A stretch of DNA of 64,000 nucleotides. Source: Candidatus Doudnabacteria bacterium RIFCSPHIGHO2_01_FULL_46_14 (lineage in GTDB: Bacteria > Patescibacteriota > Doudnabacteria > UBA920 > 2-01-FULL-46-14). The stretch covers positions 1,011-65,010 of the forward strand of contig MFEK01000014.1 of NCBI GenBank assembly GCA_001779925.1, given 5' to 3'. How positions within the stretch are numbered: position 1 is the stretch's first letter; every line of letters begins with the position of its first letter. Of this stretch, positions 3,001-48,633 are shown one piece after another. A program made the translations under genes and the position numbers. Below the pieces are notes generated by a model. The model was not told where the DNA came from and searched no databases. It was given only the letters and a program-made list of their open reading frames with translations.

Positions 3001-3833
3001 GCAAATTCCGCATCTACAAGAACCCGGCTTCCGGACAAAACCTGCTCACCATCAAGGTTGATACTGCCGCTATAACCAACCAGGGCGGCGATGGCAACAC
3101 AGGTGATTCCGGGGACGGCGTAAGCCTAACGGTCGCTGCCGATGCGTATGCCGGTAAAGGCATTGCGTCCGGATCGACAATCTCTGCCGCCAACAAATCA
3201 GGCACCTTCGACGGTCAGCAATATACGGTCTACAAGACCCAGCCGACCTTTGCCAGGGTTCCTCTGTCAACCACTTTGGCTGACGGTGATTTGGGCGTGT
3301 TCGCCTTCTCATTGACCGCTGACGCAAAGGGTGATGTCGGCTTCTACAAGGCCGCCTTTGAGATTTCCACAACGGGTGTGAGCATAACCGACTTCAAACT
3401 CTATGAAGAGTACGGCACATCCAATCAGCAGGATCTCACCACCAACGCGGCGCGCCAATCATCGGGCGAGCTGGCTGCCGGAAGAGACTATATATCCATT
3501 CTCTTGGATACAGGCACTGATGGCGTAGGCCAGGGCGGAGAATTCCGCTTCGTCGGCGCCGGTGTTACTAAGACCTTCCAACTGCGCGGAACAGTGGCTA
3601 ATGCCAGTGCCGGCGACAGTATGAATGTGGTTCTTAGAAACGCCACAGGCGTTGGTACTCACCCAGGCGATGCTGAAACCGTCGCTGATGAGGAAACAGG
3701 CCATTTTGTCTGGTCAGACTTGCACTACGGAAACTCAACACCAACTGCGACCTACACGGCCGAGTGGTTCAATGGGTACCGCGTGCCAGGATTGTCCGCG
3801 ACTTCTACACAGCAATCGCTGTCAAAGTCCTAA
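15..3833 (+). CDS. Giant secreted Thr/Gly/Ser-rich cell-surface (S-layer/adhesin-like) protein, 1272 aa
   Basis: N-terminal signal peptide (MHKPNRSFSQKVFAAGLAVTTALWAFGGLLTVAGAVEA). Three tandem ~80-aa repeats near the N-terminus (GT.V.SGTVW.VS..G...G....LYSWG.GFG.VV.ANSADLAL), then a Pro-rich linker TPTPPGPTPPP. The remainder is a long low-complexity T/G/S/V-rich beta-type region. Single uninterrupted ORF; antisense ORFs in the track are spurious. Confidence 0.75.
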   Translation: MHKPNRSFSQKVFAAGLAVTTALWAFGGLLTVAGAVEAHPAGTLVLSGTTVWHVSDDGTMRHGIDSLAKFLSHRYSFANVVPANSADLALPDGGLLGWGSGVLFNDGGTVYQVSGGTKHGFTSAAAFTGSGFSFGSVVNASLAGVTAGSNISDASMAHMEGTFVVSSGTVWRVSATGRQGVPQPGVLYSWGAGFGDVVAANSADLALANEGNASFRTGTLVNDSGTLFAVTATTKRGFPSASCYTGFGFNFSTPVAGSTAGLTAGANYCADAGTPTPPGPTPPPVSAGTVSVSLASDTPAAGTIVENAARVGFTKVNFTAGASDVIIDSMVVERTGISQDSNFTDIILLDVSGGVSVGVASQIGNEKTLGSTHQVTFADDITVKAGTTKSIMLAANMSGTLQAGETAALRLVSATPSGTATVSGSLPITGSTMTMNGTLAIGAVTIAAGSQNPAATTQQVGINDYIVSGVRVSANSVEDIEVQQMRFYQNGTAADGDVKDLELMVDGAVIATVSKPTSKEATFKLATPIVIKKGENKEFNVRLDIVDGSSRTISFDFDKKTDVVAIGKTYAYYMTPTYPNATSPFFNAPNTTIDSGALTFSKGVVASLNLAEGVNSQVIGAFKTTVQGEPVQVTRLVLNLTVTGTGNGADLTNIVVKDSAGKVVAGPIDGADNTGPDAATTTDTIIFPTGTNTYTVVANMNTDFAGNDTVQVGVDDPDSKVTAKGTVTNQTITANPTSTVTLDTLTVKTGSILVSTSTTPAAQNVLVGQTQFTFANFVLDATSSGEDVRVTALATVHRAVNSDPTNIANLTLYDGTTALSPIIQPSGTVSPATSTFSFTNPIVITKGSSKTLTLKGDIVSGDADSDTHAFGCEGTGCVTATGASTSTAITPTVTSSTGQTMSIVASGTFTVGASGTSPTQGANITGNSSKVTVGELLFTATNEDIDLTELHLGATAVNGGALNDEFSMVYLFAGSTQVASASPTTTNVITFQSLEGKFRIYKNPASGQNLLTIKVDTAAITNQGGDGNTGDSGDGVSLTVAADAYAGKGIASGSTISAANKSGTFDGQQYTVYKTQPTFARVPLSTTLADGDLGVFAFSLTADAKGDVGFYKAAFEISTTGVSITDFKLYEEYGTSNQQDLTTNAARQSSGELAAGRDYISILLDTGTDGVGQGGEFRFVGAGVTKTFQLRGTVANASAGDSMNVVLRNATGVGTHPGDAETVADEETGHFVWSDLHYGNSTPTATYTAEWFNGYRVPGLSATSTQQSLSKS

Positions 3834-7159: not shown

Positions 7160-7282
7160 GAGCTCAATTATCGTACAATAAATAGTAACTCCATTAGAAA
7201 TCTCTACTGAAATAATAAACTATATTACGTCTTTATGACAGCGCAGATTTCCAAATGGGGTTGAATAATAATCCAAGAAACC

Positions 7283-12723: not shown

Positions 12724-12806
12724 ACCGCGTTAGAAATTTTATTCAGCATATACTCAAAAATTTATGATTACATCAGCTATTAACCAAAAGGATTTCTAAC
12801 GGGGTG
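12721..12806 (+). repeat. MITE-like gene-junction element J1 (TIR ACCGCGTTAGAAAT / ATTTCTAACGGGGT)
   Basis: Left end TGAACCGCGTTAGAAAT supplies the stop of 11050..12723. Right end AAGGATTTCTAACGGGGTGAAAA supplies the SD and GTG start of 12804..13913. Confidence 0.8.
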
Positions 12807-16634: not shown

Positions 16635-16717
16635 ATCCCGTTAGAAATCTATTTTTCCACAATAATTGCAAATTTTTATGAACTCTGCTATTAACTATAA
16701 GGATTTCTAACTGGGTG
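16632..16717 (+). repeat. MITE-like gene-junction element J2
   Basis: TGAATCCCGTTAGAAAT ... AAGGATTTCTAACTGGGTGAAAA. The interior shares AAATTTTTATGA..CTATTAAC..AAGG with J1. Confidence 0.8.
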
Positions 16718-17878: not shown

Positions 17879-17975
17879 ATCCCGTTAGAAATCAGAAGCA
17901 GAAAATTAGAGGTAAATTATGATTAATTATGAAATGGATTCAGAAGAAAAAAAGACCCGAATTTCTAACGGGGTG
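17876..17975 (+). repeat. MITE-like gene-junction element J3
   Basis: TGAATCCCGTTAGAAAT ... CCGAATTTCTAACGGGGTGAATAAA. Confidence 0.8.
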
Positions 17976-39200: not shown

Positions 39201-39836
39201 ATGAAGTGGATTGTTGTGGTCGGGGCTTTAAGCAGTTTTGGGCAACCGATTTGCAAGAGGTTGTTTGATGCTGGATTTGGCATTTATGGAGTAGGCGTGC
39301 ATCTGAAAAAAGATGTGATTTATGATCCTGCAGTGTTCTCGTTCGACAGGGTTGACATCACCAATAGGGATGATACTGCCGAATTTTTCCGCGGGATCAG
39401 GAAAAAAGAGGTAGCGGGGCTCGTCAATGCTGCGCGGTTTGTACCATCGGTGTCAGATCCAGTTCGGCTAAATCTCGAAGTATCTGTAAGAATGTGGGAG
39501 ACCAATGTTCAGGGACTCGCTTATTTAGTCGACGAATTCATGTCTTCCGCAACGCGAAACCATTGGCCGCCTCCATTGACTGTGGTCGATATCGCTGATT
39601 GCGAACAAAGAGTTGGAGTGCATCCGCTTTTTTCGGCCGCAATGAGCGCAAGACGCAGGATGGGTTTTGAGTTGGCGGCCTTATATCAGAATCTGCGGAT
39701 TAAAACCATTATCCGTAAGGCCGAGGACACGCCGGAGCAGATCGCCGAAGCCGTGGAACTTCTGATGTTCGGGCAGTGCAAAGATTTCATCGGCGAATAC
39801 ACGCCAACACCAGATTCGGACTTTGCAACGAGATAG
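39201..39836 (+). CDS. Divergent SDR-like Rossmann protein
   Basis: VVVGALSSFGQPICKRLFDAGFGIYGV glycine-rich N-terminus. Canonical SD GAGGAGG upstream. Catalytic motifs are degenerate. Confidence 0.4.
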   Translation: MKWIVVVGALSSFGQPICKRLFDAGFGIYGVGVHLKKDVIYDPAVFSFDRVDITNRDDTAEFFRGIRKKEVAGLVNAARFVPSVSDPVRLNLEVSVRMWETNVQGLAYLVDEFMSSATRNHWPPPLTVVDIADCEQRVGVHPLFSAAMSARRRMGFELAALYQNLRIKTIIRKAEDTPEQIAEAVELLMFGQCKDFIGEYTPTPDSDFATR

Positions 39837-39909: not shown

Positions 39910-39996
39910 ATGAACCCCGTTAGAAATCTTAACTTCTTACGGCGGCGACAAATTAAATGATAAGCAAATAATTAAAATAGGATTTCTAACGGGGTG
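39910..39996 (+). repeat. MITE-like gene-junction element J4
   Basis: TATGAACCCCGTTAGAAAT ... ATAGGATTTCTAACGGGGTGAAAA. Here the element's TGA does not terminate an annotated gene. Confidence 0.8.
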
Positions 39997-40746
39997 AAAA
40001 TTTTTATAACTGGAGTATCTTCGGGAATAGGGCAGGAAACAGCCAGGCTTTTGATTTCCGCGGGGCATGAAGTTTGGGGCATAGCCAGAAGAAAGGATTT
40101 ACTGGATAAATTGGCGGATGAGCTGAATTCGCCGTATTTTTTTTATTCCCAGTGCGATGTGGCAATCGAGGAAGATGTAAATAACACTATTCAGCTTATG
40201 GCGGAGAAAAATTTTATGCCTGATGTTGCGGTGCTCAATAGCGCGATTTTTCCAAAAGATCTGAAGGACGGGTTTGATTTCAGTGCTTTTCGAAAGACCT
40301 TTGCCGTGAATTGCTTTGGCGCTTTAATCTGGGTAGAAAAGTTTTTGCCAAAATTTTTAGAAAGAGGCTCAGGAAAATTTTTGGCCATAGCTTCTACCTC
40401 TGCCTTCCGGCCTGATCCGGCAAGCGTTTCTCTGCCTGCCTCAAAAGCGGCTCTGTCCATGGCGTTTCGGAGCATGGGGCTACGTCATAATCAGTCTGGC
40501 GTGAAATTTACCATAGTGTATTTTGGGCCGGTGGCGACTGACATAGTTCCCGAGTTTCGCGATACAAAAGGCCTCGGCAAACTGTTTGTTATGAATCCGC
40601 AGACCGCCGCGCAGAAATTAGTAAAAGCGATTTTTGGTAATAGCGCTATTTATTATTTTCCGTTCTGGCTGACTCTGATTTTCCGCTTGACCTTGTTTTT
40701 GCCAGATCGCCTGTTTTCGGCATTGAGCAAGAAAATAAAGAGATAA
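39994..40746 (+). CDS. SDR-family oxidoreductase (GTG start from junction element)
   Basis: MKIFITGVSSGIGQETARLL; catalytic ...ASKAALSMAF. Confidence 0.75.
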   Translation: MKIFITGVSSGIGQETARLLISAGHEVWGIARRKDLLDKLADELNSPYFFYSQCDVAIEEDVNNTIQLMAEKNFMPDVAVLNSAIFPKDLKDGFDFSAFRKTFAVNCFGALIWVEKFLPKFLERGSGKFLAIASTSAFRPDPASVSLPASKAALSMAFRSMGLRHNQSGVKFTIVYFGPVATDIVPEFRDTKGLGKLFVMNPQTAAQKLVKAIFGNSAIYYFPFWLTLIFRLTLFLPDRLFSALSKKIKR

Positions 40747-40796: not shown

Positions 40797-41354
40797 CTAA
40801 AGGGATTCATTTAAATTTCGATCATTGAACTCGAGGTTATACCAGACCAAAATCGCTTCGAGGAAGCCATAGTGATGCCGGAGCAGATCATAAGGAAGTG
40901 TGTAGACTGAATGCCACCAGAAACTCGGCGGCGGCTCATCTACAAGTTCGCATGCCAGTACTATGCCGTTTTCCGGTCCTCGTTCTGTCATGTTAAATAT
41001 CGAGGCGACAGGTTCTGCCCGATAGCGCAGCCGGGCGCCCCCCAATTCCCGTTTAACTCGCCGGACAGCATCTTCGTAACTATGGTCAGTTGCGCGGAGC
41101 ATACTTCCTGGTGATGCTGACCTGCCCCGCCATTCTGGAATGTCCGTCTCGGGACGCTTGTGCAATAACACCTCGCTTTTTAGTCCTCCTGAAGGACCAG
41201 CTCTGAGAAATACTGTCTCAATCGCGGTTAGCGCAACATGCGGCGCGATTGCATTGTAGAACTGCCGCGACCACGGTTGCTTGATTTTACCGAGCAGTTC
41301 CACGAGCTGGTTTTCCTGTTCCAAAGTTAATCCAGCAGTCACTTCGACCGCCAT
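40797..41354 (-). CDS. Hypothetical protein, possibly NUDIX-like
   Basis: 185 aa. SPGSMLRATDHSYEDAVRRVKRELG loosely resembles a Nudix box. Visibly GC-richer than neighbours. Confidence 0.3.
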   Translation of the reverse strand: MAVEVTAGLTLEQENQLVELLGKIKQPWSRQFYNAIAPHVALTAIETVFLRAGPSGGLKSEVLLHKRPETDIPEWRGRSASPGSMLRATDHSYEDAVRRVKRELGGARLRYRAEPVASIFNMTERGPENGIVLACELVDEPPPSFWWHSVYTLPYDLLRHHYGFLEAILVWYNLEFNDRNLNESL

Positions 41355-41382: not shown

Positions 41383-42159
41383 TTAAAACAGTGCGTTCTG
41401 GATGGCCAGACCGCCGTCAACGCGAATTTCGGCTCCGTTGATATAGCTGGCCTGGTCCGAAGCGAGAAACGCGCAGACGTCGGCAATATCTTTGGGAGCC
41501 CCAAGCCTACGAAGCGGGATTTTTCCCGAGAATTCCTTGATCTTGCTTTTTGAAAGGCCGCGGGTTATCCCAGTTGGGTAGATGGCCCCAGGGGCAACAG
41601 CGTTAGCCCGAAGCCCTGTTGGACCAAGCTCTAATGCCAGATTTCGCATGATCCCGACCATTCCGTGTTTGGATGCGTCATAGGCCGCTCCATTGGGAAA
41701 GGCCAGTGCGGTATGCACCGAGGTGATAAAGATCACTGATGCCGGTTTTTTGCCCCGACGCGCTTTCACAAAGCGGTCTGTAATGCGCATTGTCCCTCGG
41801 AGGTTAACGTCCATGATCGCGTTGAATGTCGTTAATGACAGGTCAATCCTTTTTTTCTCCCATGAGAACGGTTCATCGATTCCAGCGTTGTTTACGAGAA
41901 TGTCAAGCTTGCTCCAGGGGATTTGCTCAAAGTTTTGTGGTTTGAATTCCGGGTGAACGATGTTCACCTCGAGAGTTACGAGGTTTCTGGATTTCGTCTC
42001 GCGCGACAATGACTGCAAACCATCCAGATCTTTATCCAGAGCGATAACCCTGGCTCCTTCCCCGAGAAATTTTTTGACGATAGCACGGCCAATGCCGCTT
42101 GCTCCGCCGGTCACCAAAGCGGATTTTCCTTTGAGATTCATGATACCTCCATTGTACAT
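41383..42159 (-). CDS. SDR-family oxidoreductase (3-oxoacyl-ACP-reductase-like)
   Basis: LKGKSALVTGGASGIGRAI; NNAG; YDASKHGMVG catalytic YxxxK. Confidence 0.8.
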   Translation of the reverse strand: MYNGGIMNLKGKSALVTGGASGIGRAIVKKFLGEGARVIALDKDLDGLQSLSRETKSRNLVTLEVNIVHPEFKPQNFEQIPWSKLDILVNNAGIDEPFSWEKKRIDLSLTTFNAIMDVNLRGTMRITDRFVKARRGKKPASVIFITSVHTALAFPNGAAYDASKHGMVGIMRNLALELGPTGLRANAVAPGAIYPTGITRGLSKSKIKEFSGKIPLRRLGAPKDIADVCAFLASDQASYINGAEIRVDGGLAIQNALF

Positions 42160-42227
42160 TGAAAGATTAGATATTATAAGCCTTAAAACCGATCATTGTC
42201 AATGCTTGTCATGCTATAATTAAAGCA

Positions 42228-42400
42228 TGAACCCCGTTAGAAATTCTGGGTGATTGTGACGGGGTCGCATGATTAACCCCGTTAGATATATCTGTAATAA
42301 GTCCTCTAATACTGATTAATAATATGATAATAAGACAGAAATTAACGATAATATTCCATATATATCTAAGCGGGGTTAACCATTTATTTCTAACGGGGTG
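42228..42400 (+). repeat. Composite junction element J5: outer MITE-like element carrying a nested variant copy
   Basis: Outer TIRs ACCCCGTTAGAAAT (42231-42244) and ATTTCTAACGGGGTG (42386-42400). Inner element TIRs TTAACCCCGTTAGATATAT (42270-42288) and ATATATCTAAGCGGGGTTAAC (42361-42381). Confidence 0.75.
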
Positions 42401-43198
42401 AAAATTACTATCCTTGGAGCAGGCACTGACGCCTCAAATTTGCCAGGAATCGAGAACCGATTTCCGCCGGGATATTTTGTGGAGCTAGGGACAGAAAATA
42501 TTTTATTTGAATGTTCCGAGGGCGTAAGATTCAGGCTGGAACAGATGGGGCAAGATTATACTGCTATCAAGCATCTTGCCATTTCTCATTCCCATCCCGA
42601 CCACTATGTTTTGGTCCCGTTTTATCAGTCCATTCATAATAATCTTAACTGGAGCGGCCGCTATGATGAGCCGCACTTGCTGAATATCTATGCGCCGAAA
42701 AATATAACCAGAGAGTTTTGGGATATGTGGCGCATGCATCACCCCAATTTTCCAGAGGGTCTAAAAACTCCGAAATTGAATTTTATAACCATGCCAAGCG
42801 AGTGTAGGGTCGGCGATGCGAAATTATCCGGTTTTTCAGTTTACCATGGCAAAGGCCTCGTGCCTGCTGTCGCTTATAGATTGGAGGCTGGCGGTAAAGT
42901 TTTTGCGTATTCCGGGGACAGTGGAATTTGTGATGGTGTTATCGAGGCGGCGAGAAATGCTGATGTGTTTATCTGTGAAACCTCGGCAGGGATTGATGAT
43001 GAAAAAAGCGGCACTGTCTATGGCCATCTCAATCCGCGGCAAGCAGGGGAGGTAGCCAAGAGCGCGGGAGCCAAGCAAATTGTCTTTGTACATTACACTG
43101 GTCTTGATTCAGACGAAGCTATGATTGAAGACTGTAAAGTTTCGGGCTTCACTGGCAAGGTTGTTGTCGGCAAAGATTTTCAAGTTTTTGAAATATAG
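42398..43198 (+). CDS. MBL-fold metallo-hydrolase
   Basis: HLAISHSHPDHY (HxHxDH zinc motif). GTG start from junction element (MKITILGAG). Confidence 0.7.
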   Translation: MKITILGAGTDASNLPGIENRFPPGYFVELGTENILFECSEGVRFRLEQMGQDYTAIKHLAISHSHPDHYVLVPFYQSIHNNLNWSGRYDEPHLLNIYAPKNITREFWDMWRMHHPNFPEGLKTPKLNFITMPSECRVGDAKLSGFSVYHGKGLVPAVAYRLEAGGKVFAYSGDSGICDGVIEAARNADVFICETSAGIDDEKSGTVYGHLNPRQAGEVAKSAGAKQIVFVHYTGLDSDEAMIEDCKVSGFTGKVVVGKDFQVFEI

Positions 43199-46381: not shown

Positions 46382-46449
46382 ACCCCGTTAGAAATGTCTG
46401 TAAATTTCAGCGAGCGGTGCATAATTAATAATTAATTTCTAACGGGGTG
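46379..46449 (+). repeat. MITE-like gene-junction element J6 (shortest copy)
   Basis: TGAACCCCGTTAGAAAT-gtctgtaaatttcagcgagcggtgcataattaataatta-ATTTCTAACGGGGTGAAAA. Confidence 0.8.
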
Positions 46450-48549: not shown

Positions 48550-48633
48550 ACCCCGCGTTAGAAATTTCCGATTACAACGGTATAACTATAATTATGAAAA
48601 TAATATTAACTCAAAAGGATTTCTAACGGGGTG
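48547..48633 (+). repeat. MITE-like gene-junction element J7
   Basis: TGAACCCCGCGTTAGAAAT ... AAGGATTTCTAACGGGGTGAAAA. Confidence 0.8.

Follow-up and report, generated by a model that had tools for sequence, protein, structure and literature searches.

A MITE-like element at a gene start of Candidatus Doudnabacteria that probably contains a second member of its own family

Correia elements of Neisseria, which occur in this genus only, have 26-bp ends and are flanked by a TA duplication. Fusion in frame with genes is known from Rickettsia palindromic elements (RPEs) and from further MITEs, e.g. QMITE1 of Coxiella (PMC10969869). Many uncultivated phyla have small genomes, which are thought to carry few mobile elements. 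Candidatus Doudnabacteria bacterium RIFCSPHIGHO2_01_FULL_46_14 is a CPR bacterium from the Rifle aquifer. The 64-kb stretch of its DNA that was analysed here (referred to as the window), the proteins of which match those of this bacterium exactly, is in its entirety a cell-surface glycan gene cluster, in which conserved palindromes recur between genes. At one of these junctions, designated J5, we consider it probable (at roughly 0.8) that two members of one MITE-like family are present, one nested inside the other.

Elements in the window and structure of J5

The window contains seven intact copies of the family, J1–J7, with lengths of 65–167 nt, at 12.7–48.6 kb, plus one copy which probably is decayed. 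A 14-mer search allowing up to three mismatches gave 22 occurrences in the window, as compared to 5.9 ± 2.4 in shuffled sequences. Apart from J5, the copies are as follows.

12725–12804, + strand: J1, flanked by TGAA/TGAA; the left TGA serves as stop codon of the ORF upstream, and the ORF downstream has a GTG start
16636–16715, + strand: J2, family copy flanked by TGAA/TGAA
17880–17973, + strand: J3, flanked by TGAA/TGAA; an internal ATG at 17919 is in frame with the downstream gene
39915–39994, + strand: J4, flanked by TGAA/TGAA; the left TGA ends no + strand ORF
46383–46447, + strand: J6, 65 nt, flanked by TGAA/TGAA
48551–48631, + strand: J7, flanked by TGAA/TGAA; 2-nt insertion in the left arm
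7188–7275, + strand: probable decayed copy with mismatches in both arms (weak), located where the glycan gene cluster begins, with divergent genes on either side

All seven intact copies are flanked by TGAA on both sides and followed by a GTG-initiated ORF, and wherever a + strand gene lies upstream, its stop codon is the left TGA; the copies themselves contain stop codons as well. Their shared surroundings can be written as (A/G)TGAA-Y-CCCGTTAGAAAT ... ATTTCTAACGGG-G-TGAA(A/T), the left arm of J7 having a 2-nt insertion. The intact copies are confined to 36 kb of the glycan cluster (12725–48631), with none in the other 28 kb of the window, and the next 10 kb past the window contain neither family copies nor a transposase gene. 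J1, J2, J4, and J7 have internal sequence in common, which suggests local spread of one subfamily. The insertion in the left arm of J7 (48552–48565, CCCGCGTTAG) and a C-to-G change in the left arm of J1 (CGCGTTAG) are signs of decay in fixed copies. Exact-protein look-ups retrieved the same junctions in all contigs, i.e., J6 and J7 were present throughout; where gene calls at these two sites seemed to differ, this was an artefact of contig ends. A 211-aa ORF at 39201–39836, whose end is 75 nt away from J4, corresponds to no more than the N-terminal half of a short-chain dehydrogenase (SDR) and probably is a truncated pseudogene beside the intact SDR gene 39994–40746. Searching the 64-kb window against Rfam gave no match at the gathering score, and a tRNA scan of the window found none.

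In the nested reading, J5 and its surroundings comprise the following features.

42228–42231, + strand: left copy of the outer duplication, TGAA, assigned from the sequence and the family rule; together with A42227 it reads ATGAA, and it contains the TGA pointed out in the initial annotation
42232–42244, + strand: left 13-nt terminal inverted repeat of the outer element, C-CCCGTTAGAAAT; the terminal pair covaries across copies
42256–42265, + strand: internal third arm, GTGACGGGGT, complementary to the start of the outer left arm
42273–42276, + strand: left copy of the inner duplication, TTAA, within the ATTAACC motif of the outer element
42277–42375, + strand: inner GATAT-type element, 99 nt; 74 further loci share its arm type
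42277–42291, + strand: inner left arm, C-CCCGTTAGATATAT
42360–42375, + strand: inner right arm, ATATATCTAA-G-CGGG-G, with one extra G at 42370
42376–42379, + strand: right copy of the inner duplication, TTAA
42386–42398, + strand: right 13-nt terminal inverted repeat of the outer element, ATTTCTAACGGG-G; the GTG start begins with its last base, G42398
42399–42402, + strand: TGAA, second copy of the duplication of the outer element; its TG is the remainder of the GTG start, and its AA the beginning of the Lys codon
42324–42401, + strand: small ORF of 25 codons, which starts in the inner element and whose TGA stop overlaps the GTG start (GTGA)
42398–43198, + strand: MBL-fold hydrolase gene, 266 aa, with GTG start at 42398; this start is the target of the outer element

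The outer element thus extends from 42232 to 42398, flanked by the TGAA duplication. Its arms, ACCCCGTTAGAAAT (42231–42244) and ATTTCTAACGGGGT (42386–42399), are complementary at 14 of 14 positions, in agreement with the initial annotation, which had recognized these repeats. The inner repeats it had reported at 42270–42288 and 42361–42381 are real, too, albeit displaced by 1–3 nt: TTAACCCCGTTAGATATAT occupies positions 42273–42291 and ATATATCTAAGCGGGGTTAAC positions 42360–42380, and the two are complementary but for the extra G at 42370. The third short arm at 42256–42265 had been overlooked. Folding of the 183-nt J5 region yielded two nested hairpins with –56.7 kcal/mol (–35.8 ± 4 for shuffled sequences; z = –5.2). 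When the inner element and one TTAA are removed, a normal 64-nt outer element is obtained, consisting of left arm, third arm, and right arm; the restored element has an ATTAACC motif, and J1, J2, and J7 keep the uninterrupted ATTAAC motif at the same place. That the repeats of J5 are not due to chance follows from the 14-mer excess, the z-score of the fold, and the 74 independent loci with the same arm type. Because the inner TTAA is palindromic, it is, from J5 alone, equally readable as part of a longer inverted repeat. An alternative arrangement, in which a mini-element, a second element, and a stray arm stand side by side, was rejected, since it leaves the stray arm unexplained and disregards that a third arm beside one end is a regular feature of single family members.

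At J5, the empty site of the inner copy is predicted to read ...GTCGCATGATTAACCATTTATTTC..., and that of the outer one ...TAAAGCATGAAAATTACT.... An exact 22-mer across the predicted empty site of the inner copy had no match in metagenome contigs, and six contigs from six samples which carry the MBL gene were all identical, none being devoid of the inner copy.

Ends, target site, and spread of the family

Scanning species-representative genomes for two canonical arms 35–65 nt apart located the canonical family at at least 120 loci, in Patescibacteria (many classes), Planctomycetota, Desulfobacterota, Nitrospirota, Elusimicrobia, Omnitrophota, WOR-3, KSB1, Gammaproteobacteria, and others. Identical 12–13-nt arms occur across more than ten phyla (loci L007–L126), mostly in MAGs from groundwater and sediment, which is unusual for a non-autonomous MITE and counts against our preferred explanation. 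The genes adjoining the copies are unrelated housekeeping genes, coding for instance for tRNA synthetases, DnaA, pyruvate kinase, and MurJ; a tie of the family to glycan synthesis was therefore ruled out.

The terminal inverted repeats of the family, Y-CCCGTTAGA-WAT, comprise 13 nt and were found in every copy of the window and, outside it, in more than 190 copies. In a set of 121 non-redundant canonical copies, the two bases that adjoin CCCG...CGGG on the outside are complementary to each other in 114 cases (C/G in 74, T/A in 39), which defines the arm length of 13 nt. Among by-catch copies, arm positions 1–9 are conserved, and there is no complementarity past position 13. Positions 10–12 vary between copies, but match within a copy in 47, 45, and 39 of 58 cases, respectively, as compared to about 27–30 with shuffled partners. 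The 4-mers directly outside the arms are identical in 73 of the 121 copies (about 60%), whereas shuffled flank pairings gave a mean of 8.8 and a maximum of 19; about 40% of the canonical copies are without matching flanks. At least 16 different duplicated 4-mers occur in this set (TGAA, 28; TAAA, 14; TGGA, 7; TGAG, 5; TTGA, 4; CAAG, 3; TTAA, 2; and others). The flanking 4-nt repeats are a target-site duplication, the preferred target being TNNA, mostly TGAA or TAAA. At J5, where the initial annotation had proposed to look for such duplications, they are TGAA for the outer and TTAA for the inner element.

Insertion, 4-bp duplication, and nesting are demonstrated directly at a locus (L097) that carries three copies of the family. 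Two of them are paralogous 74-nt GAAGC-type elements, identical between the arms and located in different flanks, with the duplications TCAA and TCGA. The empty one reads ...GGTGCCTGTAGT... without interruption, whereas the filled one contains a 67-nt canonical GAAAT-type element with CCTG on both sides, and this pair fixes both the element ends and the 4-bp duplication. Besides, the same 69-nt element was found with different flanks at two loci of one MAG (L052 and L111).

A two-arm scan for the GATAT arm type returned 74 metagenome loci, mostly with elements of 92–99 nt and flanking repeats of their own. The GATAT type hence is a real subfamily, and the description of the inner copy of J5 as a sequence variant of the same repeat family was correct. 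The conclusion drawn in the initial annotation, that nesting indicates transposition, is likewise supported, by the inner copy's own arms and TTAA repeat, by the recovery of a 64-nt element upon its excision, and by the filled/empty pair. Like MITEs, the elements have terminal inverted repeats and a duplication of fixed length and variable sequence, are small, lack a transposase gene, and occur in several copies at unrelated sites of one genome. Nesting is routine for miniature transposons; the wider interest lies in the family itself. Literature searches with the arm sequences produced chance matches only, and those on MITEs in CPR and on IS1380/piggyBac MITEs produced nothing relevant; in the literature searched, the family appears to be undescribed.

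Minimal forms of 26–28 nt, which consist of the arms and a short loop, are present at L225:3781–3806, L221:7664–7690, and L085:4745–4772. They have arms of 10–11 nt, loops of 4–7 nt, and the matching flanks TAAA, TGAG, and TTTA, respectively.

Gene starts, coding sequences, and tRNA genes

No + strand gene ends at J4 or J5, and the TGA present at these junctions had been regarded as a stop codon belonging to the element. It is indeed not that of an upstream gene, as both ORFs upstream of J5 (40797–41354 and 41383–42159) are on the minus strand, as had been noted; but neither is it part of the element, since it lies outside the inverted repeat, within the 4-bp direct repeat TGAA which flanks the element on both sides. 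Homologues of the MBL-fold protein begin with MKI or MKL, and two relatives with about 57–60% identity read ...TTATGAAA..., i.e., ATGAAA, without an element. Judging from these sequences, the TGA at J5 is duplicated target from the ATGAAA start of the downstream gene, which also accounts for the TGA at J4. Insertion into the TGAA of ATGAAA would leave ATGAA-C on the left and create GTGAAA on the right, and the GTG start of all seven downstream genes is made up of the arm's terminal G plus the TG of the duplication; in genes overlapping at ATGA, the left copy of the duplication would retain the upstream stop.

For J5, a 64-bp GAAAT-type element would have entered the MBL-fold gene at the TGAA of its ATGAAA start, the left duplication copy retaining the old ATG followed by TGA, and the terminal G of the element together with TG providing the new GTG start on the right. 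Later, a 99-bp GATAT-type member would have entered TTAA inside the first element. In the upstream region, a perfect TTGACA-18-TATAAT promoter-like site on the minus strand (42173–42202) faces the minus-strand SDR gene. On the plus strand (42212–42229), TGCTATAAT is located 6 nt ahead of the old ATG at 42227; the MBL gene may therefore originally have had a leaderless transcript, which would now open with an 8-codon ORF, MNPVRNSG, running into the element.

The elements are oriented with respect to genes, the third arm being gene-distal in 28 of 31 cases (p = 5e-6). An ATG located 24–36 nt before the junction codon, with a reading frame open through the arm, is found on the gene side in 34 of 71 cases and on the far side in 7 of 71 (p = 7e-7). 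Such statistics suggest that copies may be retained at gene starts because none of the three frames of the right arm does harm: frame 1 reads I-S-N-G and continues into the gene, frame 2 is terminated by the TAA within the arm, a few bases before the start codon, and frame 3 stops at the TGA overlapping GTG. In the window copies, small ORFs terminate in or at the arm, and an AAGGA motif (J1, J2, J7) or TAGGA (J4) directly precedes the right arm. Coupling of J5 to the MBL gene may survive the second insertion, as the 25-codon ORF from the inner element ends at the TGA that overlaps GTG, and this ORF might have a functional role. On two viral contigs (L218:10175–10215 and L223:377–417), 41-nt copies consist, on the strand of the gene, of left arm, third arm, AAGGAG, and right arm, followed by ATG, a layout in which the Shine-Dalgarno sequence and the start codon are 12 nt apart and spaced by the right arm.

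The family also occurs within coding sequences. The length of 62 of the 121 canonical copies is a multiple of three (p = 3.6e-5), and of the 81 copies, canonical or variant, whose length is such a multiple, 56 have one frame without a stop codon. Eleven copies are located inside ORFs and read xPVRN-(10–25 aa)-ISNG, among them:

L113:4780–4845, in the gene of Tex
L042:4374–4445, in the gene of GlyRS
L047:1617–1682, in a Mur ligase gene
L011:1232–1291, in a HypE-like gene
L111, L026, L095, and L020, further copies inside genes

The in-gene copies are in frame, lack stop codons, and add 22–31 residues; their flanks often are TTCAC...GTAAA rather than a direct repeat. An intron-like reading, with splicing of the RNA, was discarded as unnecessary, since copies that are in frame and stop-free can be translated.

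Other copies carry complete tRNA genes directly between the arms, namely tRNA-Thr(UGU) in L140, L159, L183, L184, and L182, tRNA-Arg(UCU) and tRNA-Ala(CGC) in L144, and tRNA-Val (Val-CAC) in L170. Copies with such cargo include:

L140:2108–2206, tRNA-bearing copy
L182:11933–12035, tRNA-bearing copy
L144:1328–1425 and 3102–3209, two tRNA-bearing copies
L170:2816–3035, tRNA-bearing copy

In the flanks examined, each of the copies with tRNA-Thr, -Arg, or -Ala lies between the residual 5' and 3' parts of a resident tRNA of like type, and the tRNA-bearing copies are without a clean 4-bp duplication. From this arrangement, it looks as if the tRNA-carrying element replaced the resident gene it had disrupted.

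Mobilization, alternative readings, and comparison with known systems

The elements presumably are moved by a trans-acting transposase making 4-bp staggered cuts. The cognate transposase postulated in the initial annotation, or an autonomous element with matching ends, was not found in the window, the 10 kb beyond, the fetched genome and metagenome loci, or 11 viral-contig loci, the latter containing short copies or chance matches. Of the observations on which the mobility of the inner copy had been made to depend, the variant copies elsewhere (74 loci) and the non-random nature of its repeat were obtained, while the transposase was not. Pairs of arms 250–6000 nt apart, searched in all loci, included none credible as an autonomous element; a recurrent mobile gene did not emerge from all-against-all BLAST of 957 ORFs, which gave housekeeping clusters only; and Pfam analysis of the genes in element-dense loci revealed housekeeping genes and one PD-(D/E)XK nuclease. 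The gene of this 248-aa, Cas4-like nuclease is located between two elements with GAAGTC-type arms (L165:1468–2563), which abut its start and stop codons; no homologue was detected in any other fetched locus. The 13-bp CCC... ends containing TAGAAA and the 4-bp T..A duplication, including TTAA, presumably resemble those of IS1380/piggyBac-type elements. An origin from IS200/IS605, which the initial annotation had suggested, is not favoured, because IS200/IS605 makes no target duplication; IS200/IS605-derived as well as REP/REPIN elements were rejected in view of the duplication, the non-palindromic single arms, and the lack of an HUH gene among the neighbours examined.

A bolder reading, which we regard as rather unlikely, is that of a hairpin-ended mobile cassette instead of an ordinary degenerate IS, moved by a not-yet-recognised transposase or recombinase common to more than ten phyla, among them CPR, Planctomycetota, Desulfobacterota, Omnitrophota, Elusimicrobia, and Nitrospirota, and having ends which would have evolved to be neutral for translation in every frame and to rebuild start codons. 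If true, such a cassette would be able to settle at start codons, within coding sequences, and even within the tRNA genes of streamlined genomes, its cargo being whole tRNAs that replace the resident ones, or a start codon with a short N-terminal peptide.

Less probable still are hairpin elements of the REPIN/RAYT, IS200/IS605, or attC kind, mobile as single strands and recognised by the enzyme as a folded stem, in place of a transposase binding the inverted repeats as double strands; J5 would be nested all the same, albeit by a different mechanism. Each copy can form a stable stem-loop, arm positions 10–12 covary within copies, the 26–28-nt forms are too short to bring two double-stranded ends together, and a classical IS partner was not found. 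However, HUH-type elements and attC recombination leave no variable 4-bp duplication, as this family does; RAYT, TnpA, or IntI genes were not seen beside any copy; a single arm is not a palindrome, as REPs are; and the very short forms may be remnants of internal deletions.

That the elements are static regulatory RNA or DNA sites, e.g. intercistronic hairpins that serve in translational coupling, or sites of RNase III processing or operator binding, and that the inner repeat of J5 is a local duplication or a chance palindrome, seems very improbable to us. Such sites would fit the stable stem and the position of elements exactly between the stop and start of operon genes, as well as the AAGGA or TAGGA motif before the right arm, the small ORFs ending in or at the arm, the gene-oriented copies (28 vs 3), and the in-frame ATG that is commoner on the gene side (34/71 vs 7/71). 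As the sole explanation, however, they are contradicted by the variable flanking duplications and the filled/empty pair, and also by the copies inside coding sequences and tRNA genes, the unrelated housekeeping neighbours across phyla, the lack of an Rfam match and of a terminator T-run, and the 74 independent copies of the inner arm type. The elements may have a secondary, co-opted role in expression.

Integron-type attC sites, with the window as a cassette array, are excluded by motif order and breakpoint position: although the core motifs GTTRRRY and RYYYAAC are matched by GTTAGAT and ATCTAAC, the elements are separated by gene modules, and the host phyla overlap those having integrons, GTTAGA is at the 5' end and TCTAAC at the 3' end, i.e., in reversed order and with an inside-out pairing register, the breakpoints are 5 nt outside GTT and not at G/TT, other genomes have single copies at housekeeping genes, and no integrase gene or domain was found in the window or the neighbours examined.

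The interpretation of J5 as two nested MITE-like elements explains the conserved palindromes between the glycan genes, the ownerless TGA, and seven rare GTG starts. The elements record eight or more insertions into a single cell-surface gene cluster of this Candidatus Doudnabacteria genome, and belong to a family with exact ends and a target rule that is common to many uncultivated phyla. Members of this family change gene starts, extend essential proteins, GlyRS and Tex among them, by additional peptides, and have tRNAs as cargo; at their sites, starts will be mis-annotated by gene callers. The elements could be used as strain markers, and the enzyme which moves them is worth finding.

Several described systems share part of these features. 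With attC sites, the family has in common the imperfect palindromes of 60–140 nt between gene modules and the GTTRRRY- and RYYYAAC-like motifs, but differs in the reversed motif order and register, the 4-bp duplications, and the absence of an integrase. REPINs likewise consist of two conserved inverted sequences around a variable spacer, form a long hairpin, and lack coding capacity; unlike these RAYT-mobilised, species-specific elements, the family has a target duplication and non-palindromic arms, was found without a RAYT, and is not restricted to a species. In contrast to piggyBac/IS1380 elements, its target is mostly TGAA or TAAA and not strictly TTAA, and a transposase of that type was not found with it. 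Correia elements resemble the family in their inverted-repeat ends, target duplication, multiple copies, nesting, location at gene junctions, and possible effects on expression; in the family described here, however, the ends are identical across phyla, and there is no known parent IS. Like RPEs, the elements are short palindromic non-coding repeats that occur between genes, in frame inside coding genes, and in RNA genes. Unlike RPEs, they measure 60–100 nt as compared to about 100–150 nt, have clearly defined 13-nt arms and a 4-bp duplication, occur in many phyla rather than one genus, and often are located exactly on start codons, and some copies carry tRNAs.
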